DNA from: an uncultured virus (IMG/VR IMGVR_UViG_3300025961_000410)
Taxonomy: Duplodnaviria; Heunggongvirae; Uroviricota; Caudoviricetes
DNA: 64,000 bases
Direction: 5' to 3' (one strand)
Virus record (IMG/VR): IMGVR_UViG_3300025961_000410
Within the stretch, counting starts at the first letter, position 1. Every line of letters starts with the position of its first letter. Below, piece by piece: positions 7,157-51,555 of the stretch. The notes beneath the pieces are model-generated. The model searched no databases, was not told the origin of the DNA, and was given only the letters and a program-made list of their open reading frames with translations. The position numbers were made by a program, and so were the translations under genes.

Positions 7157-8686
7157 CTACTGAGTTTTACGGAGAATGAACTGAGGTAACTCTGACTGAC
7201 CCATAGAATGCTCATATCTAACTGAAGCATGTCCAGGGTTAAATGGGATGTTTAAAGCAGATCGAACTTCTGTTTCAACTTGATTTCGAAGTTTTACAAT
7301 CTGCTGGCCTGACAAGTGATCTGTAAATACATATGAGTGATAACCCCCATCAGGATCACCCTTATAGTACTCAGCAACCTTAGTAAAGTCTACATCATAA
7401 GAATGTAACTGGTCGCCAGATTTCTTACAGGTATAGGTCCAGACATCCTCCAACGACGGATGAGGAACTGCTTCATCATAGTAAGGTGTACCTGGATAGG
7501 TTGTAATTACTGTGCAGTCAAAATCAGCGGGTTTTACCTTTAACAACCAATCCCTAAGAGCTAGGATGGATTCTTCAGATTCACCAGGATGGCCAACCGA
7601 CATCAACCCCTTAACCTTCAGACCAACCCTATCTGCAATTTCTAAGACTTTGGTGTTATCTTCTAGGGTAGCTTTCTTGTTGATATTTTCAAGAATTCGA
7701 GGAGACGCTGCCTCAAACCCGCATAACAACCACCTAAACCCAGCTCTGAACATAGCTCGAGCTTGCTCTTTGTTAAACAGCTCTGATTTGATAAATCCCC
7801 GAAGACGAAATTCCACTCCCAAGCGTTCTTGGAGATCTCCAATGGCATTCATCAGACTCACCATAGATTTGTTAACGTTTAGCTCGTCATCGTAGAACAT
7901 ATAGCCAGTAAAACCATACGTTTTATAGAGCATTTCAACTTCGTTAACAATCGATTCGGTGGATCGAGTCCGTATCATTCGAAGCATTTTCGAATTTCGA
8001 CCACCACAAAATCCACATGCAAACGGACAACCCAACTGTGCTATTAGGCTGGTGCTAGGAAATCCTTCAATGCTGTATTTATAGCTGGTTACGTCGACTA
8101 AGTGTCGAGCAGGAAATGGTGACTCGCCATAATCAGCGTTGGACATAAACAACCCACTTTTTGGATCATCTGCATCAATTAGCTGTGGCGCATCTTCTCT
8201 TATTGCTGCAAAGATAGATATCTCACCATCTCCTGACACCATAGTGTCAAAGAGCTGAACAAGTCGATCATAGGCTTTATGAGCTCTACCGACCCTGCCC
8301 AGCTTCACTTCTAACTTTACTGCAGAATGGACTAAAGTGATGTGTGGACCACCAGCAATGACTCGAAGATCAGGTCTGACCTTTCTAATTTGATCTACTA
8401 TTAGACTGGCCGCTGGAAGTTGAGGGGTTGTAATAGTAAGTGCTGCAACTTTAGCTTTTGTAGATGCTACTTGAAGTGCTACAACTGTTAAATAGTTCTC
8501 AATTCCAGATAAATCAAGAAGTTCTACTGAGTGCCCTGCTTTTTCTAGAACTGCAGCTACTTTCAAAATCCCCAAACTCATAAACACCCGTTCATCCAGC
8601 AAAAAAGCTGATGGTGGGGTGATTAAAAGAACAGTCTCTTTTGGTTGGGGTTTAAACCGGGTTAAGCTATCAACAGATACAGTCAA
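7157..8686 (-). CDS. B12-binding domain radical SAM protein (class B methyltransferase-like)
   Basis: N-terminal cobalamin-binding pattern (SLGILKVAAVLE...GGPH), CxxxCxxC motif GCPFACGFC, FYDDE, GFEAAS, PGTPYY. Confidence 0.9.
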   Translation of the reverse strand: MTVSVDSLTRFKPQPKETVLLITPPSAFLLDERVFMSLGILKVAAVLEKAGHSVELLDLSGIENYLTVVALQVASTKAKVAALTITTPQLPAASLIVDQIRKVRPDLRVIAGGPHITLVHSAVKLEVKLGRVGRAHKAYDRLVQLFDTMVSGDGEISIFAAIREDAPQLIDADDPKSGLFMSNADYGESPFPARHLVDVTSYKYSIEGFPSTSLIAQLGCPFACGFCGGRNSKMLRMIRTRSTESIVNEVEMLYKTYGFTGYMFYDDELNVNKSMVSLMNAIGDLQERLGVEFRLRGFIKSELFNKEQARAMFRAGFRWLLCGFEAASPRILENINKKATLEDNTKVLEIADRVGLKVKGLMSVGHPGESEESILALRDWLLKVKPADFDCTVITTYPGTPYYDEAVPHPSLEDVWTYTCKKSGDQLHSYDVDFTKVAEYYKGDPDGGYHSYVFTDHLSGQQIVKLRNQVETEVRSALNIPFNPGHASVRYEHSMGQSELPQFILRKTQ

Positions 8687-9780
8687 ATTACCTCAAGGAA
8701 GAACGAATCCCATTCTCCAGCAATGATCTTTCGATCAAAATTCTTAGCAAAATTGGTAACCTGTTCTCGACTAGCATTTAAATTTGTCTGCAACAACCAA
8801 AGTAGGTTGTGGACCCAATTTCCAAGATAACTTGGTGAATTCACAGGATGAAGTAATGCACCACTTTCTCCGTAAATTGAACCCAATGCATCCACTCCAG
8901 TAATCATCGGAACACAACCGTTAGCGCAGGCATCCATGGTTGAAACTGAAAACCCTTCAGTCCAGTTTACAGGATCGCAGGGGTAAAGCATTATGGTAGA
9001 TTTTGCAAGCTCTTCCTGCATCTGCTTATTCGATACATTGCCATGAAGAAATAAACCATTCTCCCCATTCACCCCTAAACGGCTAAAGCATTCAGCAATG
9101 TATCTAGCACGGTTTCCAAATGCGTCCGAAATTGGGTTTCCTGAATTCCACTGGTTAATGTTGACATCAAACCAGTTTTTGAATTCATAAAAAACATGCA
9201 ACTCTAAATCTTTTTTCTTTTGTCGTGCAAGTCCAAAAATCTGTAATGCCTGATGAAGTCCACGATCTGGAGAAGAGCAGTAAATCAAGCGATTTGAAGA
9301 TCTCTCCAAACCCGTCGGTAACAAATCGAGGTTGATTGAATTACTGATAGCTCGAACTTTTGACTCACTTACACAACCCCACTCTAGCATTCGATTAGCA
9401 TGAGCTTTCGATGGGCTAATGTAGTAGTCTACGAAGTCATCGAATCCAGGTTTGCAGTAGTTGAAATCGTTTAGTTGCTGAGCTACAATACGCTTTCCTT
9501 TGAAGTTTCTCAAGATGTCAGGTTCATTCCAGCTGACATATGCTTGATACTCACCTACTGCAGTACTCAACGGGTAAATTGTAGCATCACCAAATTTTGC
9601 AGGCTTTGGTGTATCACAAAACACATCAATCTGATGCCCACGCTCTGAAAGACCTCTAACTAGGTTAAAAAAAGAACTTTCAGATCCAGTCAAACCTTTG
9701 CTCGTATATAGGTTGGGAAAATCTGCAAACCCACCACGATTGCTAGATGACCACTTCCCGTAAAACATCGCTAATCTCAT
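8683..9780 (-). CDS. Glycosyltransferase, GT-B fold (GT4-like)
   Basis: GLTGSE N-terminal motif, YCSSPDRGL, EGFSVSTMDACANG (EX7E-like). Confidence 0.85.
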   Translation of the reverse strand: MRLAMFYGKWSSSNRGGFADFPNLYTSKGLTGSESSFFNLVRGLSERGHQIDVFCDTPKPAKFGDATIYPLSTAVGEYQAYVSWNEPDILRNFKGKRIVAQQLNDFNYCKPGFDDFVDYYISPSKAHANRMLEWGCVSESKVRAISNSINLDLLPTGLERSSNRLIYCSSPDRGLHQALQIFGLARQKKKDLELHVFYEFKNWFDVNINQWNSGNPISDAFGNRARYIAECFSRLGVNGENGLFLHGNVSNKQMQEELAKSTIMLYPCDPVNWTEGFSVSTMDACANGCVPMITGVDALGSIYGESGALLHPVNSPSYLGNWVHNLLWLLQTNLNASREQVTNFAKNFDRKIIAGEWDSFFLEVI

Positions 9781-9838
9781 TTGAGATTCCTCATGATAAT
9801 AGTATCAACTCGACAACTAAAACTTAGGTTACGTCAGG

Positions 9839-12274
9839 TTAAACAGCTGGTAGTAGTGGAACCATGTTAAATTCTTGCTTGAAGATCTGTTCCCATTGAT
9901 CCACTACTGATTCCCAAGTAAATTTTGATGCAAATTGAACTGCAGTCTCTGAACACTGCTCTCTAATACCTTCGTGAGATAGCAGAGTTACTACATGTTC
10001 GATAAACTGCTTTTGGTAGCCAGGTCGAGTACAATCTCCTTCGATCAAGAATCCACTACCCACAGTATCCAACAACCCTGCAATAGCTGTAGTAACAGGC
10101 ACTGCCCCAGCAGCTTGGGCTTCAAGAGCGGTAATACAGAAGGACTCATGGAACCAGGTGCTGTAGGCCCAGACCTTAGCCGATTTGAAAGCTTGGGCTA
10201 TGACTTCTTGGCTTTGCTTACCATGAAAGAAAACCCCCGGCTGTTTCAACCCTTTTTCAACTGCGTCAATTCTAGCAAGTTCTTGTGGAGGGTTGCCCTT
10301 CATCTCGGTAAACTTCTTCCACCAGTCAAATCCGTAATAAACGTGTAGTTCCGTTCCAGGAACTTGCTCTTGAATAGAAGGAAACATTTGCAAAAGTGCT
10401 TCTAACCCACGATCAAGTGAGCTTGAATACACCAATTTGTTAGTTCGCTTAATAGCAGGACCTGAAAATCTTGAGTGGTCAATACCATTTGCTGTCTTAA
10501 TCACAATTGAAGGATTTAAGCAGGGATAAGTTTCTAGGATAAACTTCTTGTGCCACTCAGATAGCACCAATACCGCATCAAACTTTAGCAACCATTGTTG
10601 CATTTGTTGAGTGTATGTTCCACAATGTACGTCGTGAATCCAGAGTAGTTTCAAACCTGCCTTGAATGATTGCTGCACTACCCATGGCTGACGAGAACTG
10701 ATGAACACATCACACTCAACATCCTTGAACTTTGAGTGATGTAAATACTCAACACCATCAAATACACCACCAACTTCTGCAAAAACACGAACCTTATGTC
10801 CTCTAGCAGCTAGAAGCTTAGAGGTGTATATCGCAGCAGTTTCTGAACCACCCAAGCCAGATTTTAGACTGTCTGGTGACCATTTTTCAACTCCGTCACC
10901 AATCCAAAAAACGATGTCCAATGGACCATCAAATTTTCGTTCTTTGTGGGTTGGTAAAGCAATTGATGTAGTAGATTGAGCTATCTTAGGTTGTTCTAAA
11001 GCTTCTGAAATTCCCAACAGATCTGTGATTACTTTTAACTGATCTAACTTCAAGGGATGCAAATCAGATGGCATTTCTTGAAGAGTCTTATGGAGAATTT
11101 GAGAGTTAACCTTCAGATCATATACAGTTTTTGCAGCTCTGTATACCGCAGCATTTAGTAAAAATTGAGGGTCTGTTGGAACTGCTTTCAACGCTTCTTC
11201 GCAACAGTTCAAAGCTTCGACAACCTGATTAATTCGATTGTAAGCAAAATTGAGGTATCTGAAAACCTCAACATTCCGGTCCATAGGATTAATGAAAAGC
11301 AAACTATCGGTAACTGGCTTAGATGTAGCAACCTTCCCAAAATGAACAGCCAATTCCCAGTCACGAGTAGATTGGCTTTTCATTGCTTTGCAATAGAAGG
11401 CTCTTAGTAAAGCATAATAAGGCTCGAACCAGTTTTCCCTAACAGTAGTTGCTTGCAAACCCCATGCAATAGCTTCATCAAATTCTTCTCGAATGAGATG
11501 GGTTGCAGAGATTTGGCACATCGCGTTACACTTTTCATCATCCCAGCCAGAGAGTCTACAATACCGCTTCAGGATTGATAAGCTCTCTTCATGGTACCCT
11601 CTTCCACCATACTCCACCCCTAGGTAGTACAGCTGTCGAGGATCTGACTCTCCATGCTTTTCATACCACTTCTTCAAAATCCTCAGATTTCTCTCGGGAT
11701 CAGAAGAGGTTTTTCCTTGCCGTCGGTGCTTGATAATTGTCTTATCAAATCGATATAAGATCCCTACATTCTGATCAGGCTTTGGTACGAGTAATTCATG
11801 GATTGGGTTTACCCAATGAAATGAATCTTTATTCTTGATTAACCGCTCTCTACGTAAGAGACAGGTCACGTTTCCACTAGCATCGTAATCATATTCATAG
11901 TTCATGAATATCTGAATGCCATGGCCTTTGTATTGAGGGATTTGATCAGCCTCAAAAGCCATCTCTCGTAGATATTCTGCACCTACGACTTCATCATCCC
12001 CATCTACCCAAAACACCCAGGGGTGGGTGGTAAGACTTAAAGCTCGATTTCTAGCTTTAGCAAAGTCTTCGATACGATCAAGATCATCATTGCAAAATCG
12101 ATAAACTTCAAACTTATCCGCAAACTGTCTAGCAATTTCTGGGGTTTTATCGTTTGAACCTGTATCAACGATTACTAACTCGTCAACATGAGGTCGTAAT
12201 GATTTTAAGCACTGCTCAAGACGGAGTTCTTCGTTTCGAACGATTAAACATGCTGAAATTAGACTTCTTTGCAT
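9839..12274 (-). CDS. Bifunctional glycosyltransferase: GT2 (GT-A) + TPR + GT4
   Basis: ISACLIVRNEE...VDTGSND...DFAKARN...WVDGDD (GT2 with DxD), helical TPR-like middle, then GLGGSETA...YSSSLDRGL...ESFCITALEAQAAG (GT4). Confidence 0.9.
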   Translation of the reverse strand: MQRSLISACLIVRNEELRLEQCLKSLRPHVDELVIVDTGSNDKTPEIARQFADKFEVYRFCNDDLDRIEDFAKARNRALSLTTHPWVFWVDGDDEVVGAEYLREMAFEADQIPQYKGHGIQIFMNYEYDYDASGNVTCLLRRERLIKNKDSFHWVNPIHELLVPKPDQNVGILYRFDKTIIKHRRQGKTSSDPERNLRILKKWYEKHGESDPRQLYYLGVEYGGRGYHEESLSILKRYCRLSGWDDEKCNAMCQISATHLIREEFDEAIAWGLQATTVRENWFEPYYALLRAFYCKAMKSQSTRDWELAVHFGKVATSKPVTDSLLFINPMDRNVEVFRYLNFAYNRINQVVEALNCCEEALKAVPTDPQFLLNAAVYRAAKTVYDLKVNSQILHKTLQEMPSDLHPLKLDQLKVITDLLGISEALEQPKIAQSTTSIALPTHKERKFDGPLDIVFWIGDGVEKWSPDSLKSGLGGSETAAIYTSKLLAARGHKVRVFAEVGGVFDGVEYLHHSKFKDVECDVFISSRQPWVVQQSFKAGLKLLWIHDVHCGTYTQQMQQWLLKFDAVLVLSEWHKKFILETYPCLNPSIVIKTANGIDHSRFSGPAIKRTNKLVYSSSLDRGLEALLQMFPSIQEQVPGTELHVYYGFDWWKKFTEMKGNPPQELARIDAVEKGLKQPGVFFHGKQSQEVIAQAFKSAKVWAYSTWFHESFCITALEAQAAGAVPVTTAIAGLLDTVGSGFLIEGDCTRPGYQKQFIEHVVTLLSHEGIREQCSETAVQFASKFTWESVVDQWEQIFKQEFNMVPLLPAV

Positions 12275-12304: not shown

Positions 12305-12964
12305 CTAGAAATTAGTGCAAAGAAAGGGAGCTGAAGTAAATGGTTGGTAATTCTGAGAGTTTTGGCCATCTGTGAATGTTGCATTCTTAAAGCCATACTT
12401 ACTCCCAACTGCCCCACCATCACAATAGAAACCAATCCCTACCAACCCTGATGGGCAAACAGTATCAGTTCCTGAACAAAGAAGTGATCCATTTAGGTAC
12501 AAAAACAGGTTATTTCCAATAGCTTTTGCCATCAAAACATCACCGTCATTAATTGTACCCAAACCACCAGCTGTAGCAATATAGGTAAAATCACCGAGTG
12601 ATGTGCCTAATGGTCCTGGCCACCTAATAATCTGGGCATAGCTTCCATCAAAAGCTAAGTTGAATTCATATCCTCTAGAAAAGTGAGCTTGATCTGTCCA
12701 TCTAAGAAGTAATTCTACCTCTGCGTGTGCTGAAGTAATAGCACCACCAGTTCTTGATACTACACCAGTAGCAGTTTGAGTGTCCCCGTAGGTGGACTGG
12801 AGTAAGGCATAAGAGTCATTAAAACCATCTGAACCAGTCTGTGTTCCAAAAGCAACTCCGCCAGAAGTGTTAACCAAGGTCCAATCAAGACCTACATGTC
12901 CCCACACCCCGCCTTCGGAAATTGGCGACTGATTTAAGGGAAAATTAGTTTGATATTGCATCAA
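12305..12964 (-). CDS. Beta-sandwich (lectin/ConA-like) protein with C-terminal APFLCTNF tag
   Basis: G/S/T- and aromatic-rich beta pattern (VELLLRW...GYEF...GIGFY); shared C-terminal tag. Confidence 0.55.
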   Translation of the reverse strand: MMQYQTNFPLNQSPISEGGVWGHVGLDWTLVNTSGGVAFGTQTGSDGFNDSYALLQSTYGDTQTATGVVSRTGGAITSAHAEVELLLRWTDQAHFSRGYEFNLAFDGSYAQIIRWPGPLGTSLGDFTYIATAGGLGTINDGDVLMAKAIGNNLFLYLNGSLLCSGTDTVCPSGLVGIGFYCDGGAVGSKYGFKNATFTDGQNSQNYQPFTSAPFLCTNF

Positions 12965-14382
12965 AAATTAGCACAAAGAAAGGGGGCAGTCACCAAACCA
13001 GTCGAAGCTGGAAAAGTATCAGCCACTAAAGTACCAACTAAATACCAGTCATTAGTACCTGTTCCGTTATCTCCAGGTGTGGTAAAAGACTGTGATGAAG
13101 CAGTTTTGGGGTAAGTACCAATCACCGATCCCATAATTCCAGTAGTGGGGTTCCACCATCGAAATACAGTAGAACCTGCCATACTCTGTAAATCGACACT
13201 AAAGGTAGTTGTACCTGTACCAGTTGGTGGAATGTAAGAGAAAAGTTGTGATCCATCGCTTGTCATACAAGCCGAAATAAAAGAAGTACCACTCCCCTGA
13301 CCCGAAACAATGAGGGTTCTACCACAGTTCGCAGTACCATAGCTACCAGCACCTGAGATTGGACTACTTGAACTGGTACCACTGGGCCTTAACAACCACC
13401 ACTTTATCGAATCATAGAATGCGTTGCAATAACTTTGATCAATAGTGGCAGATGCAGTTAGAGAGGTAAGAATTCCTGGCCTTCCATCCCACCTCAAATC
13501 CTCACCAAAATTCGTCCCACCCAAAGCCCCACTGGACAAGGCCCAGTGAATCATAGATCTAATATCAGATCTAGAATTCTTAGGGTCATAAAAAGCATTT
13601 GTGTAGTTAGGCTCAGTTTGATAACTTGGCCCACATGTACCAGCCACTGAAAGTAGGTAAGAAGAATAAGCTTCTACATAAGTACACCCATTTTGACTCG
13701 CACCTTGCCCATAAAATGAGCTAATTTGCATGTCTGATGTTGAAGGGTTTACTCCGAGAGTTACACCAGACTGGCTAGTTATAATCGAGTTTGGTCCGTC
13801 TAGCTCGCATCCTGCTAATCGATTACGACTAACACTCTGAATCCCTGCTATGATATTTTGCCACCTTGTTAATGATGTGCCACTTGCTGTTCGATCACCC
13901 ATATGCATCCAAATAATATTTGGTTGAGTGAATGTAGAAGCAAGATAGGCACCCCAGTTAAAACAGGTGGAGTTGCTAGCAGCAATTAAATCAGCATCCC
14001 AACCATCAGATCCAGCCCCTGCATAGGTGTGAAAAAACATAACACCTAAGTCACGGGAGTTGGCTCTGTCAATATAATCGCTTAGTTTAGAAAAATAAGC
14101 AGAGTTTGGGGTTGAGAAAGTAGCACCAGTAAATGGCTGATCACCGTCAAAATTAGCGGGTTCGTTTACATCACCCCAGCTAGTAGAGTTCTTAACAATA
14201 CCCATCAAGGTGGTGGCGTTAAAGCCTAACGCCTTGATTCCATCAAGATATGAATTTTGAGTGGAGGTATCGAAATTGCATTGGGTAATCCACCCTGCAT
14301 CAGACTTGATTCGGTAAGGAGAGCCACTTGCTGTTTGTAAGTATCTACCAGAATTGTTAACACTCAATGGAAAAGTTGTCAT
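12961..14382 (-). CDS. DUF4038 (apiosidase-like glycoside hydrolase) + C-terminal 'collagen-binding'-type domain, ending APFLCANF
   Basis: FPLSV...GRYLQTASGSPY...DAGW, GFNA, PNSAYFSKL, PNIIWMHMGD, EPNY, RWWNPTTG...FTTPG...NDWYLV. Confidence 0.75.
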   Translation of the reverse strand: MTTFPLSVNNSGRYLQTASGSPYRIKSDAGWITQCNFDTSTQNSYLDGIKALGFNATTLMGIVKNSTSWGDVNEPANFDGDQPFTGATFSTPNSAYFSKLSDYIDRANSRDLGVMFFHTYAGAGSDGWDADLIAASNSTCFNWGAYLASTFTQPNIIWMHMGDRTASGTSLTRWQNIIAGIQSVSRNRLAGCELDGPNSIITSQSGVTLGVNPSTSDMQISSFYGQGASQNGCTYVEAYSSYLLSVAGTCGPSYQTEPNYTNAFYDPKNSRSDIRSMIHWALSSGALGGTNFGEDLRWDGRPGILTSLTASATIDQSYCNAFYDSIKWWLLRPSGTSSSSPISGAGSYGTANCGRTLIVSGQGSGTSFISACMTSDGSQLFSYIPPTGTGTTTFSVDLQSMAGSTVFRWWNPTTGIMGSVIGTYPKTASSQSFTTPGDNGTGTNDWYLVGTLVADTFPASTGLVTAPFLCANF

Positions 14383-14439
14383 AAGTTAATTAGCCAACTT
14401 CTGGTACCTAGTCTGTCCTGATTACACATTTGATGTACA

Positions 14440-15831
14440 TCAAAAGTTATTACAAAGAAAAGGTGCCATGGTGAAAGTTGGGGAAACGGTACTTGTAACT
14501 GAGTCCAATATCAACAGCCAATCACTATCCCCACCTGAATTTCCGCCAGGTGTGCTGAATGAATGTGTCCCACTATTTGGCAACGAATTTGAAATTAACG
14601 TAAAACCTGTAGAAACACTAGAAGCTGTAGGATCAAACCACCTCGCTCTCATCTTAGTTGAGAATGTCGACATATTTACTACCAAAGATGAACCTACACC
14701 ATTGGGGAAGTAGGCAGTCGCTAGAGTAGGTGTTGAAGCTCCACAGATGTAGCTATCGTTTAAATACGTCCCTCTACCAGAAGTGAATACTGAACTGCTT
14801 TGATCGGGTACTAGTGTATGCTGAGGTATACTTGACCAAAACTGATAAGCAAGAACTGCTTGACTTTGCCCTGGAGAACCACTTACCCAATCGGAAAATT
14901 GATACCACAATGAACCATAACAGTAAGAAAGGCTGCAAGCTCCAGAACACATAGCCTGCCAAAGTTTTCGCCTAATCGTTAATGGGTCACCTTGTGGCTG
15001 CCCAATCCCAGGACCTGACTCATAACTCTGATCAATAGGTCCTGTAGGTAAAGTTGGTGAAGCATTGTAACCAGTTAGAATTCTTGAATAAGGTGGGCTA
15101 CCGCTAGAAGGGTTATATGAATATAATGATCTAAAACTCATCACAGAAGCATCATTAGCAAAATCAGTGGATAGCATCCCTCCTGGAATGGGATCAATTG
15201 ATCCACCACCAATTTGATAATCACCAGCATAGTGACCAGCTACTGGAAGTGTATTACCTGTAAGAAGTGCATTCTTTAGCGAGTTTTGCAGTGAAAGATT
15301 AACGCTAGATCCCACCCCTGTTCCAGGAACCTGATCCCCACCTAGCAACCACCCGACATGATCTCTTGATCCATATCTTGATTGAAGATAGGTTCCAAAA
15401 GATGCCATTTTGGTAGTGTTATTTTGTGTGTTAATGGTATCTCCCCACCCCTGGTTAGTAAAAGCGTAATAACCTAAATAGTCAGGCACCAACCACACAA
15501 AAAAACCTTTGGTCCTTAGGTAATCCAACATATCATCCACGTGTGAAAAATATGTTGAATTAGGAGTAGAAAAATCCCCCGGAGTAGTAAAAGGTGGTAC
15601 TCCTTGCCAATCAGGAGGAGATCCAGGAAAACTAGTATCAAAAGATATGACACTAATCTTCATGGTATTAAAACCTTGATTTGCCCTCCTATCAACAAAA
15701 TCTTTAGCGTTTGCTGTAGATAGAGATTGAAATAAACCCCACCCAGTGCATTCGTTAAATAAGAACGGTGCACCAGCAGCTGTTTGAAAATATCGACTAG
15801 AGCTGCTAACACTTAAAGGGAAAATAGACAT
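14440..15831 (-). CDS. DUF4038 (apiosidase-like) paralog ending APFLCNNF
   Basis: FPLSV...RYFQTAAGAPFLF...RRANQGFN...PNSTYFSHVD...WLLGGD...RWFDPT...FSTPG...SDWLLIL; collinear with 12961-14382. Confidence 0.8.
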   Translation of the reverse strand: MSIFPLSVSSSSRYFQTAAGAPFLFNECTGWGLFQSLSTANAKDFVDRRANQGFNTMKISVISFDTSFPGSPPDWQGVPPFTTPGDFSTPNSTYFSHVDDMLDYLRTKGFFVWLVPDYLGYYAFTNQGWGDTINTQNNTTKMASFGTYLQSRYGSRDHVGWLLGGDQVPGTGVGSSVNLSLQNSLKNALLTGNTLPVAGHYAGDYQIGGGSIDPIPGGMLSTDFANDASVMSFRSLYSYNPSSGSPPYSRILTGYNASPTLPTGPIDQSYESGPGIGQPQGDPLTIRRKLWQAMCSGACSLSYCYGSLWYQFSDWVSGSPGQSQAVLAYQFWSSIPQHTLVPDQSSSVFTSGRGTYLNDSYICGASTPTLATAYFPNGVGSSLVVNMSTFSTKMRARWFDPTASSVSTGFTLISNSLPNSGTHSFSTPGGNSGGDSDWLLILDSVTSTVSPTFTMAPFLCNNF

Positions 15832-16562
15832 TAAGCAGCCAAAATGCTTCTAGAGCCCAATGCATTCCTGCTTGACATTTGAGTCGTTCGAGATATCAAT
15901 CCAGCTCCAAGTTCTTTGAATGAGTATATACCAGTAAGAGCTCCTGATGTAACCCCACCACTAGCTGAAAAAGAACTTTGGTAAGTTGTTGCTGAAGATA
16001 CTATCCGATAAGCAGTTCCACCGGTAACTGAATCTGAACCATGGCCTTCAGCATCTAACGGTGTAAAGCTGTTACCCCAGTTAAGAACCTCACCATCTGC
16101 ACTAGTATAGGTTAAGGTTTGGGATATTAACAGCTCGTTGGGTTGGGATAACGTTCCCGTTACTGAAGAGGTGTATGGGTCAGTTGTTGAACTATTAGCT
16201 GCTGGATTTTGATCTAAAATACCAGATAACGCTCCTCCAGTAATCTCTACCACCCACAACCCAACTGCAGAGTTTGGTGATAAATTTGCAGTAAATGTAT
16301 GACCAGCACCACCAGAGCCATTTACACAGAGAAAGATTGCTAGCTGTAGCTGGTTATCTGGAGCAAATGAAGCGTTTGTCCCAACCTGGGGAAAACTGTT
16401 CGACTTATTATCAGCTATCGTAATTGTATTCGCAGAACTGTAAACCCCCACCCCAATAAAAAAGGTACTTCCAGTAGCTTGGGTTGTTATAGCTCCCGAA
16501 GTTACAGATGATGCACCAAATAATGCCCCTGCATGAGTATGTGCGCCTACATTAATTGACAT
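15831..16562 (-). CDS. Putative virion surface/fibre-associated beta protein
   Basis: S/T/G/A-rich beta pattern within the structural cluster. Confidence 0.45.
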   Translation of the reverse strand: MSINVGAHTHAGALFGASSVTSGAITTQATGSTFFIGVGVYSSANTITIADNKSNSFPQVGTNASFAPDNQLQLAIFLCVNGSGGAGHTFTANLSPNSAVGLWVVEITGGALSGILDQNPAANSSTTDPYTSSVTGTLSQPNELLISQTLTYTSADGEVLNWGNSFTPLDAEGHGSDSVTGGTAYRIVSSATTYQSSFSASGGVTSGALTGIYSFKELGAGLISRTTQMSSRNALGSRSILAA

Positions 16563-16573
16563 CTAATCACTGA

Positions 16574-16972
16574 TTAATATGAATTAGAAAAGAGATAAAT
16601 ATGCCCAAACCAAGTTATGGTTGTAGCTGAAACCCCAGTCGCTTGAAGAACAATAGCTGGACTGCTAGCCACAAGAGATGCGATAGCTGTAGCTAAGGTT
16701 CCAGTAGCACCTGTAATAACGTTTAAGGTGCCTAATGCAGATAAAACACCTGACGAGAATTTAAATGGTCTGGCCACTTCAATAGTGGCTGCGTTTCCCG
16801 AACCATCTACGCCAATTAGGATTCCCTTTACATAAATGATCGCATTGTTTGGAACACCACCAAGCTGCAGCCAACTATTAAAGGTTGCTACATTTACTGT
16901 AGTAACACCTGTAGTAGAAGGTTGAGAGGTGTTTGGATCGGTTTCTGAACGAACGTTATACAGATATTTCAT
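16574..16972 (-). CDS. Hypothetical structural protein
   Basis: 132-aa T/G/A-rich ORF tightly coupled to the collagen gene. Confidence 0.45.
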   Translation of the reverse strand: MKYLYNVRSETDPNTSQPSTTGVTTVNVATFNSWLQLGGVPNNAIIYVKGILIGVDGSGNAATIEVARPFKFSSGVLSALGTLNVITGATGTLATAIASLVASSPAIVLQATGVSATTITWFGHIYLFSNSY

Positions 16973-16973
16973 G

Positions 16974-19900
16974 TTAACCTAGGATTGTTATCCCACCATT
17001 ACCATTCATCATATACAGGTTTGAATAAGATGTAGCCGCATATGCCCAGATCAAAATACCACCAGTTGGTTTAACAGTTCCTAGTGGGGCTGTAGCAGCA
17101 TTTCCAATAAAGCCAACACCATGCCCTGTTCCAGATGGGACATGAATCTCAGATAATCCAGTCCTAACCCCCATAGCGAAATAATCTCGACCACTTAAAA
17201 GGGCTGCCTCAAAAAGGATATCTCCTGTTCCAAGTTGGTAGCTAGTCCCGTTAAATGTACCTACATAAGGTCCAGTAGCACCAGCTGGTCCAGTTGGCCC
17301 TGTAGCCCCTTGAGCTCCAGCTGGACCTGTAGAACCAGTTACTCCTTGAACCCCAGTAGCTCCTTGAGGACCACCAGATGGGCCAGTAGCACCAGTTGCA
17401 CCTATTGCAGCCTCAAGAGAGATTAAACTGAGATTACCTGATACGAAAACTTGCCTGCTTGATGTTCCCTGCTTCGATACCTCAATCCAAGCAGTATGTC
17501 CACCTACGTTTGTAGAACTAATCACATGCTGAGCAGTTATAGGAGCATTGATTCCAGTTACACCTTGTAAAGACAGTGTAAACGGAATGCCTGGGATATT
17601 ATCAATAACTACTCTTGCTTGAACTGGAGCACCTAGACCAGTCGAAAGGCCAGTAGACGAGAATTGGCCAATAAATAACCCAATGAGGTTACCTACTGCT
17701 TTATTCGTTACATTTGCGAAGCTAGTTGCTACTGCTGTAAAAGTTCCAGAGCTAACTGTAGGGATCGAAATACCAGTGAAAGACGCAGTCCCTATAGGGA
17801 GGTTTATGCTAGCAGGTAATGCTCCAGTAGCACCCGCTGGTCCTGTTGGACCTGTTGCTCCCTGAGGTCCTGTAGCACCAGCTCCTGGACCCGTAACTCC
17901 CTGAGGTCCTGTAGCACCCTGAGGTCCTGTAGCACCAGTTACACCAGCAGGGCCTGTTGGGCCAGCAGCTCCAGTAGCACCTTGAATACCAGCTCCAGTA
18001 GCACCTGCAGGTCCCGTTGCTCCCGTTGCTCCAGCTGGACCTGTTGGACCAACCCCTGGTAGTGGCCCAGATGCACCAAAGTTTGGAGCTAACGAGCCAT
18101 AAACAACTGAGCCATCGCCTATTAGAGCTACAAAATCATTCGCACCAGAGGCAGAACTAAAGGATGGGACATAGTTATGCTGCCAAACTACCCCCGTGGC
18201 GCTTGATGGCCAGAACAGGTTAATATTATCAGAGAGATGTGTAATCTGTAGCTGATAATTTCCCACGCCAGTAGGTGGAATTATTCGAAAAGTCGTGTCA
18301 GTTGATACCCAAGCCCTAAGTTTCTGACCTTTTGTTAAATCTACAGTTTGAGTTCCAATAGCTGTGGGTACAGGAACAGGTCCAATCCCTATCGTAGCAC
18401 CGTTGAATTGTACTGATCTGACATTTGTTAAATTGCCAACATCATCAAGAATTATCTGACTATCTTTGAGGGAGGGGGCAGTACCCCAACGGGCTAATGA
18501 GTTGAATGTAGCTCCTGCTGTAGGTGCTATTGCAGCTCCAGATGCTGACCCGCCACCACCCGCTGGACCAGTTACACCCTGAACCCCCGTAGCACCTTGA
18601 GGTCCAGCGGGTCCTGTTGCTCCAGTTACACCCTGATTTCCTTGAGGACCAGTAGCACCGGTTACGCCTTGTGGTCCAGTTGGGCCAGTTACACCCTGAT
18701 TTCCTTGAGGTCCAGTAGCACCAGTTACGCCTTGTGGTCCCGTAGCACCCGTTACACCCCTAGCCCCTGTCGGTCCTGTTGCGCCTTGAACGCCTGTTGC
18801 TCCTTGAGGTCCAGTAGCACCAGTTACGCCTTGAGCTCCTTGAGGTCCAGTAGCACCAGCTCCAGGCAATGGTCCAGATGCACCAAAGTTTGGAGCTAAC
18901 GAGCCATAAACAACTGAGCCATCGCCTATCAAGGCTACGAAGTCATTTGATCCAGATGCTGAATTAAAAGATGGGATGTAGTTGTGCTGCCAAACTACTC
19001 CGGTAGCACTCGAAGGCCAAAAGAGGTTAATGTTGTCCGAAAGATGGGTAATCTGTAATTGATAATTTCCCACTCCAGTAGGTGGGATTATTCGAAAAGT
19101 CGTATCAGTTGATACCCAGGCTCTAAGCTTTTGGCCTTTTGTTAAATCTACAGTTTGAGTTCCAATAGAAGTTGGAACTGGAACAGGCCCAACACCAGAG
19201 GTAGCCCCATTGAACTGTATAGACCTGACATTCGTGAAATTTCCAACATCATCAAGAATGACCTGACTATCCTTAATGTAAGGAGCAGTACCCCAGTGTG
19301 CTACAGAGTTAAATAGAGCACCCGAGGTTGGAAATAGGGCTGCACCAGAAGCAGATCCTCCGCCACCAGCTGGTCCTGTTGCGCCTTGAACTCCTGTTGC
19401 ACCTTGAGGCCCAGTTGCTCCAGTTGCCCCTGTAGATCCAGCTGGTCCAGTTGCCCCTGTTACACCCTGGTTTCCTTGAGGTCCAGTAGCACCCTGAACT
19501 CCCGTTACACCCTGGTTTCCTTGAGGTCCAGTAGCACCAGTTACACCTTGATTTCCTTGAAGTCCAGTAGCACCGGTTACGCCTTGATTTCCTTGAGCGC
19601 CTTGAGGTCCAGTCGCACCGGTTACGCCTTGATTTCCTTGAGCGCCTTGAGGTCCAGTAGCACCGGTTACGCCTTGAGGTCCAGTAGCCCCGGTTACGCC
19701 TTGAGGTCCAGTTACTCCAGCTACTCCCGAACCACCAGTACCAAAATTAACCCCAGGCCACGCCCAATAAGTTTGGGATGGGATATTACCATCATTTTCA
19801 AATTGGATAAGATCTTTTGAACCTGACGGAACACTTAGAGTTGGTGTTACGCTATCTTTCCAAAGAATGTTAGAAGGCCAAACAGCATTAACACCAGAAG

Positions 19901-21224
19901 CTGCGTGTATAATTTTTAGCCGAAGACTGTCTGCAGGCCCTGTAGATGGGCCAGTCATTAAGAATACTGTATTTGTCGCTACAAAAGCAACCTGACGTGC
20001 ACCTAAAGTCCAGTCCACCAACTGTGTAACACCAGTTGGTATATTCACCTCAGGTAGGAATTGTATTCCCTTAACACCGAAAACATTTGCATCATCTCCG
20101 AGATATACTAAGCTACCTTGCAGTGAAACCCCAGATGAACCAGTCCACCTCGCTATTGCTTTATTAGGTGCTGTAGCTGGTCCTACTACGTTACCAGCAC
20201 CACTACCAGCGGGTCCTTGGATGCCTTGTGGACCAGTAGTTCCTGTAACACCCTGAGGTCCTGTGGCTCCTGCAGGACCAGTTGCACCCGTAACTCCAGC
20301 AGGGCCCGTTGGGCCAGTTGCCCCTGTTACCCCTGGAGATCCAGAACCAGCTGGTCCAGTTGCACCCGTAACTCCAGGATTGCCTTGAGTACCAGTAGCT
20401 CCCTGTGGTCCAGTTACACCTTGAATGCCTTGTGGACCAGTGGCTCCAGCAGGTCCAGTTGGGCCTGTAGCCCCAGTTACGCCCTGAATACCTTGAGCGC
20501 CTTGAGGTCCTGTAGCCCCTGTAACACCTTGAACCCCTGTAACACCCTGAGGTCCTGTAGCTCCAACTGGTCCCGTTGGTCCAGGGTTGCCAGTAGGGCC
20601 TTGAGGTCCTGTAGCTCCAGCTCCAGTCCCACCCCCGCCAGCTGGACCTGTCACTCCTTGAGGACCTTGAGGACCTGTTGCTCCAGTAACGCCTTGAGCT
20701 CCTTGAGGACCTGTAGCTCCCTGTGGTCCAGTTACACCAACACCTGTTCCCCCACCAGCTGGTCCTGTAACACCTTGAATGCCTTGAGGTCCTGTAGCTC
20801 CAACTGGTCCTGTAGCTCCAGTTACACCTTGAACCCCCGTAGAGCCTTGAGGTCCAGTAGCCCCTGTAACTCCCTGTGGTCCAGCTGGTCCTGTAGCTCC
20901 AGTAACACCTTGAGATCCTGTTGGTCCTTGGGTTCCAACGCTACCTTGAACTCCAGTTGCTCCTTGAGGACCAGTAGCACCGGTTACGCCTTGAGCGCCT
21001 TGAGGTCCAGTAGCACCATTCTGCCCTGATGGGCCCGTAGCACCCGTTACACCTGGTGTACCAGTCTGTCCTGCTGTGCCCGTTGGTCCAGGTAATCCTG
21101 TTGCTCCTCTTGGACCCGTTGATCCAGTAGCTCCAGCAGGACCTGTAGCTCCCTTAGTCCCTGTAGCTGAAGGCTCATTTACTAAATCGAGCTTTCCTGT
21201 TAGCGCATTAAATACGAATTTCAT
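16974..21224 (-). CDS. Collagen-like fibre protein (Gly-[11 protein letters not shown] rich) with interspersed globular domains
   Basis: Several long G-X-Y runs separated by non-collagen domains; 1416 aa. Confidence 0.9.
18055..19370 (-). repeat. Internal duplication of a ~170-aa globular domain in the collagen gene
   Basis: Two near-identical copies (approx. 18862-19370 and 18055-18565), both containing [63 protein letters not shown]. Confidence 0.9.
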
Positions 21225-37242: not shown

Positions 37243-40200
37243 GTGATTTTACCAACAATGTTTGTAGCTGCACCAAAACTCTCCACGCCAGGTACATACA
37301 GACTTGTCAAAATTGCATACGTAGTCAAGTCGAAGCTTTTCATCAACCTCACAGATAATGACTGGTACGTCATGAGTTGATGTAGACCATTCATAAGCAA
37401 AACCATACTGACAAGTTGAGACTATTACGAATGGGTTTGCAAAAACTTTTAGCCAGGCTAGTGACCAAAGAAGGTAATTCATTAGGTTTTAGACTCTAAT
37501 CGATCTAAGATCTCTTTTGCTTCTTTGAAGGCGACTGAATGGTAACGACTTTTCAGCTGGATGACATCCGATGCATAAACGGGTGTGACCCATCTAAATG
37601 GACCCCATTGAATCACAACCATTGGTATATCGTTCGCCCCTAAGTACTCACGAATCGGTATACCAAATGTCCCACCTTTAGATACAACAAATCCAGTGAA
37701 CCTACGTCTAGTCGTTGTAGGTTGCCATTTTTCCTTAAAGCGGGAAATCATATCAACATCATGAGAGAAGACCATTTCCCATGCCTGATGATCATCTGAT
37801 TCTTCTGCAGTGTCTGCAATTTGCTCTCTCATCTCAATTGTATCTTGTTGATTGAGTCGATTAAGAGCACGTTCAGCCAACTGAATGGTTTCTGACTTCA
37901 TATCAAGACCTGATAAGAAGCAGTATTGATAGGTCCCTCACTACCTGAATGTCAAAGGTTACAGTACGATCTGAGTCTTCAAAAACAATTGAAAGTTCTT
38001 CAGTATCAACTAAGAACTTGACTGGAGGTGGGTTGGAAGAGTTGTCTGAATCACTGGTTGGAATTGCTAGAAGTGTTACTGGTTTCATCGATCCTCATCC
38101 CTTTTTGAGTTCTTTTAGTTCAGCTCTAAGCCACGTTGCAACTAGCGAAAACTTTTCTGCTGTCTCTGGGTGTTCAGGGCTACGGTTAGCTAACGAATCG
38201 GCTTTTAGCTCAATCATCTCCAGTATTGAATTAGCTACGGTAGCTCGATCTTCTTCGATGGCTTTAATAGCCGGAAGTATTGACCATTCGAATTCTGGTC
38301 CACCCAGTCTTCTAGCAAATGATTCTGCACTCTCAACTGCTGACAGTGCTGTGGGTAAAGAAGCAAGAGTTTCGATCGCTCTGTCTATATGCATGATTGG
38401 TACCATGCCCCACCTCTCACTATTTGCACTCTTCAGTATCTCTCTGGCTTCCTCTCTAGTCATTTCTTGAAGGTAATTACCTGCTAGTTTTTGTTCCATA
38501 TCTGTCTTCACTTTCTTCTTGGATTCGTCTAAAGTCCAGAGATAGCGTTTAGCATCTTCAAGCTTTTCAAATTGATGCGATGCTAGTGCTCTTCTAGAGC
38601 AGTCTGCTATTGCTTCAAGTGTGTCAAAGTCTGCTAAGGCTTGCTCAAGTCGAGAAAGCTCTTCTCCAGTTCCAAGATTCATAACCCCATGTTTACTTGT
38701 TGCAACAATCTTTAACAGATTGTACAGATCTTGACTCAGCGTAGGTTCAGCCATTGACTTCTTTCAGCGGGTTTAGAATTTTCAAAACTATGTTTCTAGC
38801 ACTTTTTGACAGGGCTTCTAGTCTAGCATCACCAGTATCAGGTTCGAGAAGTTCTAAGATTCGCTTCAATGCTAGCGGCGAGCATTTCTCTAAGAATGCT
38901 TCAAAATCTTCTATGCTAAGTCCAAGCATTACAACTGCTAGCTCAGCTCTTACGTTATCACTCTTGTCAATTCCCAAAAGAAAAAGATGGGAACCAATAC
39001 GTCGATCCACTTCTTTTTCTGCTTCAGTAAGCTCTTCCCAGGGTGTTAACCAAGACTCTTTAGGGTGGGGTTGTTCTTTTGCCCAAGCTATCCATACAGC
39101 TCGAACTTCTTTCCCTAAAAGTTCTGTAGTAGGTTTAGTCATTTGCAATCACACTTGTCGCAAAGCGGACAGACTTCTAATTCATGTGCATCACAAGGAA
39201 AGCCAACTGGACAGGTTTTGGCTCGCCGATAAGCACAGTGTGGAGAGTGGTTATTAATTGCATCACAATCGCATTCAACCATTTGACATTCGCAGAATTT
39301 TCGTCTGGATTTGATTTGGTTGATAGACGTATGAGACTTTACTAGATGTGGAGAAGAGGTTGCTGTATGATACGCATCAAAACGTACTTCAGTCAGTTCA
39401 AGTACCTCTATGTTATCCTTCATTTGGTTTCAATTCTTTGATAAATGCTTCAGTAGCTGTTTGTAGTAGTGGGCACCATTGGGGTGTATTCCAGTTTGAA
39501 TCACCTACATAAACCATTTTGGTTAGAGGGTGCGAGCAATACACCTGAAATCCACTATCACCTTGCACTGCATACTTTTCAGACTTTGAGTATTTGCATC
39601 CATTACATGAAATTTTTAAAAGAAATTTTGGTCCCTCACGAGCATCACTCATTCGGTTTTACCTTTGCAAAATTTGAAGAACATCACGTAAGTAGGTAAG
39701 TATATGCTTAGGTTCAGTACCAGCGTCTACCTCTTTATCGATGATAGCTACCACATCACAAGCTGTTTGGTTTTTTGATCTTTTCTCTGCTTGACGATAC
39801 TCTTCTAGCTGTCGTTTGATAACTACGACTCCGTCAATGAAGTCTGTTACATAGGCATCGTTGACGTTGTATTGATCATATAGGTACTGTCTCAGTTCTT
39901 GTGGAGTCATCTTATGTCCTTAACCCCCCGTCGCAATCCTTAAATCCCTCATCATAACCAGCATTATAAGCAGCCTTGTTGCCCATCCGAATGGTATTTC
40001 GAAAATTAACCCTAACAGCTTCAGCAAGAAGAGTCTTTACTGGTTTTCCTTCAGCTAGCGCTACGAGGTCGTCTGCTAGTAGGTTACGAGATTTTTCAAC
40101 TCCTTCTGATAGACTCAACCGTTCTCGTAAACGAACAATAGTCAGCTTAGCACATTCAAGAATCAATGGTGGTTGTGCACCAAAGATATGTGCCCCACAG

Positions 40201-49004: not shown

Positions 49005-49346
49005 TCACGGTTTGACCCCAGCATATCGACAAGCTTTAGCGGACTCACAGGAGTCTGCATGCTTGACGCAGTCAGGATTCAAGCTAAGGACTTCGGAATC
49101 CTCTGCGTTCTTACAAACTTCAACACAAGTAGTACCTTTGGGAGTGGGCAATGCTTCCTTGCATTTGTACTTAGCAAAAACAGCGCATGCTTTCTCACAG
49201 TCAGTAACGGGTTCAGTACCACCATCAACTATAGGTGGTGGTATCACTACCGTAGTTGTAGTAGTTGGAACAGGGTCAGGTGACGGTTTAGGTGACGGTG
49301 TACATTGAGAAGCCAAAACCAGCGTTAACAGCATTGCTTTGATCAT
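49005..49346 (-). CDS. Secreted/lipoprotein-like Cys-rich protein
   Basis: MIKAMLLTLVLASQC signal, P/T linker, CxxAC...C...C.EVC...C...C...C; ATGA-coupled to the peptidase gene. Confidence 0.6.
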   Translation of the reverse strand: MIKAMLLTLVLASQCTPSPKPSPDPVPTTTTTVVIPPPIVDGGTEPVTDCEKACAVFAKYKCKEALPTPKGTTCVEVCKNAEDSEVLSLNPDCVKHADSCESAKACRYAGVKP

Positions 49347-50056
49347 AGATGCACCGCCCAAAGATCTGTAAAGGTTTGAGCAAACTCGTAAGAAACTCTC
49401 AAGAATCCATCTTCGCCATAATCTTTGCCCCAACTGTTCACTATCTTGAAATAAGTTGGTGTGTAACCTACAAAGGACAACGCATGTCCACCAATGTAAG
49501 GCTCTTCTGGGTCCGGGTTATAGATTCCACTAGTATATTCTTCAATCGATTGACCTACACTAGTTCCACCTCCAACTGGTTTTCCAGATGAAATTGACTG
49601 CTTAATCTGATCAAGGGTGGTAACTCTGTAATAGCCTGCTGGTCCATTATAGTCGATTCCCGCTTGGTACCTCTCCCATTCTGGTTGGATATCAACATCA
49701 TCCCCACCATACGAGAGTTCTGGTGGTCTGCCAAACCTTATCACCCCCTGAGCACAACTTCTCAGCTGAGTCCCTTGATCAGAGATTGGCCCACCATCGT
49801 ATTTTCTAGAATTGTAATACAAAAACCGCCTATCAGCTAAAGGTGGGTTTTTAACTCCAGCAACCTGATCTGCAATCCGAAGTAACTGAGCCCAGGTGTT
49901 TGCTACACAGTCATTGTTAGTCTGATTGAGAACTTCAACCACCTTGTCAGACAGATCAAACTCTTTGGGGGTAGGTGCTGCTGCCATAAGCATAGCAAAA
50001 TGCTTATCACGTGGATCTGGCTTATCTGGGATATAACCGTATTTAGCTATTGTCAT
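49343..50056 (-). CDS. Papain-family (C1A) cysteine peptidase
   Basis: YGYIPD.PDPRD propeptide-like start, NQTNNDCVAN (Gln/Cys), GGHAL (His), NSWG..YGEDGF (Asn). Confidence 0.85.
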   Translation of the reverse strand: MTIAKYGYIPDKPDPRDKHFAMLMAAAPTPKEFDLSDKVVEVLNQTNNDCVANTWAQLLRIADQVAGVKNPPLADRRFLYYNSRKYDGGPISDQGTQLRSCAQGVIRFGRPPELSYGGDDVDIQPEWERYQAGIDYNGPAGYYRVTTLDQIKQSISSGKPVGGGTSVGQSIEEYTSGIYNPDPEEPYIGGHALSFVGYTPTYFKIVNSWGKDYGEDGFLRVSYEFAQTFTDLWAVHL

Positions 50057-51462: not shown

Positions 51463-51555
51463 GTTGACCTCACACATCTGCAGCTATAGCGATTGCAACG
51501 TATACAAAGAACCCACATAGGAATTACCAAATCCATCATTCGCTCCTATACCAAT

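Follow-up and report, generated by a model that had tools for sequence, protein, structure and literature searches.

A C-terminal octapeptide shared by three adjacent proteins of an uncultured tailed phage, a candidate docking plug for a tail-fibre domain

The window analysed here, i.e., the whole 64-kb stretch (64,000 nucleotides) of the IMG/VR virus record IMGVR_UViG_3300025961_000410, belongs by content to a large tailed-phage genome. Nearly all of its genes lie on the minus strand, and phage-typical ones include those for a Mu F-like protein, a DNA ligase, collagen-like fibre families and others. The window proteins are also recorded on a 200,475-base contig in the protein collection, and a 152,626-base IMG/VR contig comes from the same phage. 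Three adjacent minus-strand open reading frames (ORFs) in the window end in a shared C-terminal octapeptide, APFLC-x-NF-stop, in the versions APFLCTNF, APFLCANF and APFLCNNF. A preliminary description of this DNA, made from its letters, had singled out this tag as a possible docking or sorting signal. Here, we describe the tagged proteins, the family of tails to which the octapeptide belongs and a domain of the tail fibre into which it may dock.

The three tagged genes

The tags comprise eight codons and a stop each and occupy 12305..12331 (tag 1, ORF1), 12961..12987 (tag 2, ORF2) and 14440..14466 (tag 3, ORF3), all on the minus strand, with the stop of tag 2 overlapping the start of ORF1 (TGATG). 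The ORFs end ...TSAPFLCTNF, ...VTAPFLCANF and ...TMAPFLCNNF, respectively. In the DNA alignment the seven conserved codons show synonymous differences only (GCT/GCC/GCA, CCC/CCT, TGC/TGT, AAT/AAC, TTC/TTT), the stop codons are TAG, TGA and TGA, and similarity among the three copies ends at the tag borders on both sides. Since the changes are only synonymous and the similarity stops at the tag edges, it is the peptide on which selection acts, and the tag is no DNA repeat. A six-frame scan of the whole window found no fourth ORF with the tag or a looser tail, the sole other C-x-N-F-stop being in a 10-residue frame (37438-37452), and in the 152.6-kb contig of this phage pattern scans likewise turned up just the three.

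ORF1 (12305..12961, minus strand) encodes a protein of 218 amino acids (aa), consisting of a ConA-like, CBM66-like lectin domain (residues 1-198), a linker of ~12 residues and APFLCTNF. This is the form in the protein collection and starts at the ATG at 12961; a TTG start gives 219 aa (12305-12964). No Pfam, PHROG or NCBIfam family was found on it. The AlphaFold2 model, for which 88 homologs served as the alignment, is a confident beta-sandwich with a mean predicted local distance difference test score (pLDDT) of 92.5, in which the last ~18 residues are disordered and the final two ten-residue blocks score 51 and 54. Its fold lies among the ConA-like lectins and glucanases, with the CBM66 chain 4b1m_C as top Foldseek match (E 1.9e-08). 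None of the 88 homologs is tagged, and most stop ~19 residues before the end of ORF1. Bacterial homologs (P0016, P0021, P0023, P0026, P0033) carry the C-terminal sorting domain (CTD) of the type IX secretion system (T9SS), PF18962, where the phage protein has its tail, and the lectin module thereby bears a different address label in each setting.

ORF2 (12961..14382, minus strand; 473 aa) consists of a DUF4038/apiosidase-like glycoside hydrolase, a 'Collagen_bind_2' beta domain, a linker and APFLCANF, with Pfam matches to PF13204 at 2.1e-27 and PF12904 at 5.4e-06. ORF3 (14440..15831, minus strand; 463 aa) is a second DUF4038/apiosidase-like enzyme (PF13204 at 7.1e-39, PF12904 at 3.6e-07) followed by a linker and APFLCNNF. 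The two enzymes are 27% identical overall (133/497 columns), yet they are equal at seven of the eight tag positions, and ORF3 is nearer to tail-less metagenomic proteins (41-44% identity) than to ORF2. ORF1 is unrelated to either. The tag was present on none of the 208 retrieved homologs of ORF1 and ORF3, and six aligned DUF4038 relatives end at a ...DW-L-L-L-[DE] strand beyond which ORF2 and ORF3 run for a further 17-21 residues.

Because the ORF1 tail is disordered and the homologs end earlier, we read the tag as an appendage on a linker and not as a strand of the fold. The descriptive part of the preliminary description therefore stands: the ORFs and the tag DNA lie exactly at the coordinates it gave, the first protein, being CBM66-like, has a fold different from that of the two DUF4038 paralogs, and the tag follows a linker after the folded domains, as seen in the low tail pLDDT of ORF1 and the extensions of ORF2 and ORF3. 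It had also considered that the tag might be an integral strand of the folded C-terminal domain, which the position of the tail outside the fold speaks against, and that further, unrelated domains might carry the tag; within the window there are none besides the three, and the unrelated domains that carry it elsewhere nearly all have a version with Gly in place of Cys.

A widespread tail and its linkage to a fibre domain

The lead to a wider family came from a complete 427-kb phage genome (L208), in which the gene just upstream of a GT2-TPR-GT4 fusion enzyme ends NAPFFGTNF. Two further loci with this enzyme end VIFSAANF (L211) and SIFFGFSF, i.e., Ala or Gly takes the place of the window's Cys. 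A degenerate DNA pattern, APF[LF]-G-x-NF-stop, retrieved 17 viral loci; in nine of them the hit is a long ORF (182-454 aa) with the ending (N)APF[FL]GxNF. The 26 tagged proteins collected, which come from contigs of uncultured phages, form at least 16 groups without a BLAST link to one another and have no common N-terminus. In an 11-row alignment of the tails A, P, F, N and the last F never vary, the consensus across the wider set is hydrophobic-F-[FL]-G-x-N-F-COOH, and in relatives the tail often follows a linker of Gly, Ala, Pro and acidic residues. Because Gly holds the position nearly everywhere else, the Cys of the window is taken as a lineage-specific swap of a small residue and not as part of the motif core. 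Judged by sequence, the octapeptide is a Cys-for-Gly variant of a widespread, so far undescribed C-terminal tail.

The cargo found on this tail is of an exchangeable, receptor-binding or depolymerase type, namely DUF4038 glycosidases, the CBM66-like lectin, and proteins with right-handed beta-helix, F5/8 type C and Laminin_G_3 domains, the last of these together with DUF2341. Of the 15 tagged proteins from outside the window that were scanned, 11 had no Pfam family. Elsewhere, the families of ORF1 and of the DUF4038 enzymes are mostly tail-less. The preliminary description had held that absence of the tag from homologs in related phages would count against a portable signal, and here the outcome is divided: cargo homologs are untagged, but other cargo carries the tag widely. 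One of the enzyme-bearing relatives (L211, 3956-9642) has a collagen-like fibre with the fibre domain described below, a DUF4038 enzyme, a LamG-like protein and the GT2-TPR-GT4 enzyme in a window-like order; there the tail (VIFSAANF) is on the LamG-like protein only and the end of the DUF4038 enzyme is untagged.

Searches with the two patterns in other collections gave mainly short frames. In 596 Gb of cellular genomes the Gly pattern had 48 stop-terminated matches, mostly in short frames, and the seven matches of at least 100 aa were unlike the tagged proteins. The Cys pattern, APF[LF]C-x-NF-stop, occurred at 7 loci in viral contigs, at least 115 in metagenome contigs and 71 in genome contigs; leaving aside this phage's own 152.6-kb contig, the stop-terminated matches were almost all short stop-to-stop frames, and the few frames of 94-291 residues (the longest, of 291 aa, in the archaeal metagenome-assembled genome L143) were unlike the tagged proteins. 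Among the INPHARED phage records there was no match to the 4-kb region, to ORF1 or to two tagged proteins from other contigs. No published description of the tail was found, the text matches to it being papers on hydrogels and peptides without relation to phages, and subscription journals and supplements lying outside the search.

The neighbour that the tag loci share is a fibre gene. Upstream of the tagged gene lies a gene whose product has a conserved C-terminal domain of ~110-130 aa, hereafter the fibre domain (FD), which closes with ...D-[IV]-[IV]-S-F-Y-Y-D-G-T-N-Y-Y-G-V-A-S-L-D-F-[SGA] and matches the PHROG tail-fibre families 9017, 7760, 22179, 27998 and 3904. This gene was directly upstream or one gene away in all eight long-ORF viral hits with enough upstream sequence (a ninth, L321, is cut by the contig end and was left out). 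Between fibre and cargo the genes vary from one tag locus to the next and are unrelated to each other, FD being the sole common neighbour. The linkage was also assessed from the side of FD, using a profile built from the domains of eight other phages and no window sequence. Thirty-two viral loci were retrieved, of which 28 were distinct and had room downstream. A strict tail, defined as [FYWM][FYLM][GC]x[ND][FW]-COOH within 3 kb after the FD gene, was found in 13 of these 28 loci versus 0 of the 447 other ORFs in the same loci, and looser variants were seen by eye in six further FD loci. Among the 79 enzyme loci, which are unrelated to these, only one of 3345 ORFs had the strict tail, namely the true tag of the 427-kb phage. 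FD occurred in none of the 84 cellular loci matching the Gly DNA pattern, and in none of 106 loci with chance matches of the Cys pattern. The numbers of FDs and tags also agree, with one of each in the complete 427-kb relative and three of each in the window phage.

In the window the FD-bearing gene encodes a collagen-like tail fibre of 1416 aa (16974..21224, minus strand; PF01391 at 6.1e-77; PHROG tail-fibre families) without a single Cys. Its collagen repeats are broken by three FD beads and a different C-terminal region. The beads, each a proposed socket on the minus strand, are FD1 at 19737..20198 (globular insert of residues 343-496, profile match 373-480, independent E-value (i-Evalue) 7.1e-11), FD2 at 18858..19349 (residues 626-789, profile match 650-777, i-Evalue 3.7e-10) and FD3 at 18051..18542 (residues 895-1058, profile match 920-1046, i-Evalue 1.5e-10), with FD3 and FD2 being 89% identical. 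Against all 237 six-frame segments of the window the i-Evalues are 1.7e-08, 8.9e-08 and 3.4e-08 for FD1, FD2 and FD3, respectively, and no FD was found outside the fibre among these segments. The 152.6-kb contig starts within the fibre gene and holds just the two FD copies that lie inside it. The end of FD, ...[LP]-[ND]-F-[SGA], resembles the G-x-N-F end of the tail (e.g., fibre residues 777-785; L329 4898-5395), and in single-FD phages both the FD end and the tail are free C-termini. Locus L329 has the smallest natural pair, a fibre of 165 aa and a tagged protein of 210 aa.

A different shared tail, ...Y-I-Y-[ML]-A-[FI]-A-E-[NT]-P-F-K..., was observed on large proteins encoded right after FD-like fibre genes in three cultured phages, MEP301, cyanophage SS120-1 and CRP-603 (L452 3780-6146, L453 3799-6144 and L451 3794-6502), and this ending may mark another family of docking tails at the C-terminus.

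FD2 gave an AlphaFold2 model of moderate confidence (pLDDT 69.8 overall), with a beta-sandwich core at residues 61-152 scoring 80-90. This model had no Foldseek match in the PDB at E<=1e-3. With VIA-align, six top chains at Z 6.4-7.1 were separated by a gap from the rest; five of these are phage fibre, spike or baseplate proteins, and CpaA (6o38) is among the six, with StcE (4dny) at Z 4.8. FD superposed on residues 78-180 of CBA120 TSP4, the XD1 domain, with Z 6.6 and a root-mean-square deviation of 3.1-3.4 Å over 95 residues. The TSP4 paper names T4 gp9, T4 gp10, CpaA and StcE as XD1 homologs (PMC8825819). Because three matches fall in that homolog set, FD is read as XD1-like; T4 gp9 and gp10 were not among the structure matches of FD, and XD2 and XD3 were not matched. 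An XD1, or T4 gp9-gp10-like, fold is offered as a lead only, Z scores of ~7 being common for models without a true match. As for its family, FD had no match in the Pfam copy searched. Precomputed annotations of PF26209 (Phage_phiTE_241_C) are present on 11 of 38 FD relatives, and in an Atlas neighbour cluster 41% of members carry PF26209, with T4_gp9_10_N as a minor lead. From these annotations on relatives FD probably corresponds to PF26209, again as a lead only. The phiTE structure paper is silent on the PF26209 domain, and the literature found on fibre docking peptides concerns N-terminal systems only.

A complex of three FD2 copies and the last 40 aa of ORF3 was predicted in three runs with three controls. 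The median score was 0.42 (runs 0.42, 0.50 and 0.34), which falls in the band of weak support, versus 0.02 for the best of the three controls and 0.00 with an unrelated protein in place of FD. The runs agreed in at least 53% of contacts, and the FD chains had a pLDDT of 88-90. In the calibration of the tool, from which our custom alignments and 3+1 stoichiometry differ, 116 of 157 solved complexes and two of 215 mismatched pairs attained the mark, and 18 of those 157 complexes plus both passing mismatches were at 0.60 or under. Because the genomic linkage had made this pairing a likely guess beforehand, the score is counted as modest added support.

Taken together, we favour, with moderate confidence, the reading that the octapeptide is a short docking plug which attaches receptor-binding or glycan-degrading modules to an FD socket of the tail fibre. 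The portable docking peptide for carbohydrate modules that the preliminary description had envisaged, e.g., on the collagen fibre, gains from the varied cargo, the linkage to FD and the three FDs of the fibre, all of which are consistent with such a role. That the tail physically binds FD, with what stoichiometry it does so and that the cargo proteins are virion components are points that we infer from these data.

Several observations weigh against this reading. Fifteen of the 28 FD loci have no strict tail. FD-like domains occur in 32 INPHARED records, and a tail was sought in nine of these, i.e., annotated phage records (eight of them cultured) with more distant FD-like domains, plus one further uncultured record, and was found downstream in none; with these annotated records lacking a tail, no cultured example of the system came to light. 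The fold match of FD is middling, with a Z of ~7 that is common by chance, a model of modest pLDDT and no Foldseek match, and, according to the TSP4 paper, XD1 modules bind no trimeric partners across the threefold axis and are regarded as a spacer (PMC8825819). The complex score is in the weak band and came with no listed contacts, and the tail partner in it has a low pLDDT of 43-45 (at least 42). No covariation was seen between FD residues and tail variants, docking on FD does not account for the change from Gly to Cys common to all three window tails, and the linkage could come from the synteny of fibre-module genes and not from contact. A compensatory swap, with Cys in FD against Gly in the tail, was considered and fails across the 34 FD-tail pairs.

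The tail might instead dock its cargo to a different conserved part of the virion, for instance the baseplate, a further segment of the fibre or an adaptor protein, with FD and tail occurring together as members of a shared fibre module. The FD loci and annotated FD-like phage records without a tail, the weak complex score and the spacer role described for XD1-type domains (PMC8825819) would all fit with this. However, no protein other than FD is conserved across the tag loci, the FD and tag counts match at 3:3 and 1:1, and replacing FD by an unrelated protein drops the complex score to 0.00. We consider another docking partner rather improbable, albeit the most credible of the alternatives to docking on FD.

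Neighbouring genes, the glycosyltransferase module and the cysteine

Two untagged genes lie between the fibre gene and the tagged genes. The gene of a 132-aa protein (16574..16972, minus strand) comes straight after that of the fibre; this protein has no Cys and lacks conservation at the other tag loci. It is followed by a 243-aa protein (15831..16562, minus strand) with no tail and no Pfam, PHROG or NCBIfam family, which is weakly akin to the tail carriers of two other phages, L208_453 and L219_234 (blastp ~1e-3). An internal tag-like stretch in it, IFLCVN at 16320-16334, is probably an ordinary beta-strand of its family. Elsewhere in the window, minus-strand genes encode a response-regulator receiver domain, a papain-family protease, an Fe/Mn superoxide dismutase and a NUDIX-pyrophosphatase fusion (grouped coordinates 395-796, 49343-50056, 50701-51477 and 59845-62403).

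On the other side, directly downstream of ORF1 and abutting it, lies the gene for the GT2-TPR-GT4 fusion enzyme (9839-12274, minus strand; 811 aa), followed by a GT4 and then a B12-binding radical SAM protein (module 7157-12274, minus strand). The GT2 part is nearest to protein or peptide glycosyltransferases, i.e., GmaR (1.7e-20), ThuS (7.3e-08) and SunS (1.4e-07), and the NCBIfam model for SunS, TIGR04195, matches the enzyme at 1.5e-10 with 40.5 bits versus a cut-off of 350. TPR domains can hold protein substrates, as described for FlmG (PMC7591256), and for this reason the tag was tested as a handle for the enzyme. Under this explanation the tail would, through the Cys or the Ser/Thr-rich linker, be a recognition or acceptor site for O- or S-glycosylation, in the manner of SunS/ThuS or GmaR. 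The abutting genes in the window, the tagged gene of the 427-kb relative which abuts the same enzyme gene, the nearest relatives of the GT2 part and the substrate binding known of TPR domains (PMC7591256) all speak for it.

The distribution of the enzyme does not. It belongs to a large family, which has 27,327 representatives at E<=0.001 and 557 confirmed stretches in viral contigs, and among the best 80 of these 557 no locus except that of the window's own phage had neighbours sharing a tail. Conversely, the enzyme was near the tag in one of 20 tag-bearing loci (within 4-6 kb flanks), and at least 74 of 79 other enzyme loci are without the tail. The Cys position holds Gly in the relative with the same enzyme, and the TIGR04195 score is far below its cut-off; with the 1/20 co-occurrence, these also separate the tag from the substrates of SunS and ThuS, i.e., the glycocin type. 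The radical SAM protein is 55-75% identical in 7 loci and travels with the enzyme and the GT4, also in phages without the tag, and the module is usually beside collagen-like genes and often accompanied by sugar-nucleotide genes. Because the enzyme tracks collagen-like genes and not the tail, the Thr-rich collagen fibre is the likelier substrate, which the module probably glycosylates and perhaps methylates. That the tail is a glycosylation site we consider quite improbable.

There is also the question of whether the Cys at position -4 is the very point of the tag, i.e., whether it is a site of CaaX-like lipidation or of a disulfide or thioether link, or the mark of an export or sorting signal. 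It stands at exactly this position in all three proteins, and a B12-radical SAM gene is nearby. However, almost every other member of the family has Gly there and a distant one (L211) has Ala, and the radical SAM gene accompanies the glycosyltransferase module in phages that have no tag. Unlike in a CaaX box, the Cys is followed by T, A or N and then by N, i.e., not by aliphatic residues, and it is not conserved among relatives. Sorting signals of the LPXTG, PEP-CTERM, GlyGly-CTERM and T9SS CTD types combine a signal peptide with a motif, hydrophobic helix and basic tail or with a CTD of ~80-100 aa. Here, the tail has eight residues with nothing after it, no hydrophobic segment follows the motif and the N-termini are by eye unlike signal peptides. 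A disulfide from tail to fibre is ruled out because the fibre has no Cys, and the 132-aa protein has none either. The preliminary description had offered, as an alternative, that an invariant Cys is modified or disulfide-linked through the neighbouring GT2-TPR or radical SAM enzymes; with Gly in the wider family, the linkage to the enzyme in one of 20 loci and a Cys-free fibre, this suggestion is not supported. Judged from these comparisons, modification of the tag Cys by the adjacent enzyme is unlikely, and a tag whose function lies in its Cys is the least probable of all the explanations considered.

A proposed plug and socket beside known systems

Returning to docking on FD, the free C-terminus of a cargo protein, held on a flexible linker, would attach as a plug to a socket, the FD beta-sandwich. 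In most phages with the system the fibre ends in a single FD, and one tail-bearing cargo protein is encoded by the next gene or the one after it. In the jumbo phage of the window each chain of the collagen-like fibre strings three FD beads, and the cargo would be the two DUF4038-type glycosidases and the CBM66-like lectin that bear the Cys variant of the plug. Enzymes and a lectin would thereby decorate the collagen fibre, which would serve to bind and cut a surface polysaccharide of the host. A broader version holds that this is a general, minimal plug and socket found from ~20-kb contigs to 427-kb jumbo genomes, which in this phage has its sockets threaded thrice into a collagen rope and perhaps uses the Cys as a thiol lock. 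We put this forward tentatively, as possible but somewhat short of probable. As pure speculation, three Cys around the threefold axis could lock the plug, either through a metal site or through a disulfide between tails.

The order of a fibre gene followed by a tagged gene is also the classical order of fibre and chaperone. T4 and T2 gp38 and the Tfa proteins of Mu and P2 are fibre-tip binders encoded just after the fibre gene. The tagged proteins might accordingly be fibre assembly helpers of the Tfa, T4 gp38 or Pam3 gp25 kind, for which the tail would be a transient handle and the protein no stable part of the virion. The description of Pam3 gp25, in which a non-conserved beta-sandwich domain binds the fibre, lends this some weight (PMC9608196). 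On the other hand, the cargo consists of typical receptor-binding or depolymerase modules, i.e., glycosidases, lectins, discoidin and beta-helix domains, and Pfam and PHROG scans of the tagged proteins brought up no known chaperone family. It would be strange for one fibre to need three different helpers, and the tail would still dock to the fibre. We judge a helper role improbable, and marginally more so than docking to another virion part.

How receptor-binding proteins (RBPs) are attached governs the ease with which modules are exchanged, both in nature and by engineers, and host range is set by such modules. Were docking of the tail on FD to hold true, several consequences would follow. 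An XD1-type domain, whose role the TSP4 paper regards as not fully understood (PMC8825819), would gain a function, and a collagen rope with docking beads would be a new fibre architecture. Bacterial lectins and glycosidases would become virion parts by gaining just a linker and a tail. The tail, with its 6-8 residues, would be the smallest such adaptor known to us, the described ones that we found being folded N-terminal anchors or N-terminal peptides of ~35 residues. It would also provide an annotation rule for RBPs in uncultured phages, i.e., an FD-bearing fibre gene and then a gene ending in the tail.

Among known recognition systems outside phage fibres, PDZ domains and TPR clamps recognise short extreme C-terminal motifs. 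The tail has in common with their ligands a C-terminal motif with an aromatic last residue, a free carboxylate and a flexible linker. However, no PDZ domain was found, and the neighbouring TPR domain does not co-occur with the tag. Among phage systems, Pam3 gp24-gp25 is similar in that the gene right after the fibre gene encodes a binder of the distal fibre (PMC9608196). Fibre-tip proteins of this kind, gp38 and Tfa included, are made of folded domains of conserved families, whereas here a portable C-terminal hexapeptide is found on unrelated cargo.

In the Ackermannviridae phage CBA120, T4 gp9/gp10-like beta domains in the proximal protein, TSP4, organise several tailspikes, and FD superposes on one of these domains, XD1, albeit as a middling match. 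The CBA120 partners, however, use N-terminal XD domains of their own to bind XD2 and XD3 of TSP4; no C-terminal peptide takes part, and XD1 is regarded as a spacer (PMC8825819).

The closest parallel is that of the podophages KP32 and K11 of Klebsiella, in which an N-terminal peptide of ~35 aa on the second RBP plugs into a T4gp10-like branching domain (PMC13579863). Both systems would have a docking domain on the primary fibre or spike, a separately encoded protein with a short conserved peptide and exchangeable glycan-directed modules. In KP32 and K11 the peptide is N-terminal and ~35 aa long, while here it comprises the last 6-8 residues with a free carboxylate; and their socket is the T4gp10-like branching domain, while here it would be the candidate XD1-like FD, in up to three beads of a collagen rope. 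Branched systems are defined by an N-terminal docking peptide or domain, whereas the 26 tagged proteins share a C-terminal tail only. The principle of a plug that enters a docking domain is thus already known, and what would differ here are the polarity and size of the plug, the FD socket, the breadth of the cargo and the arrangement of sockets as beads on a collagen rope.

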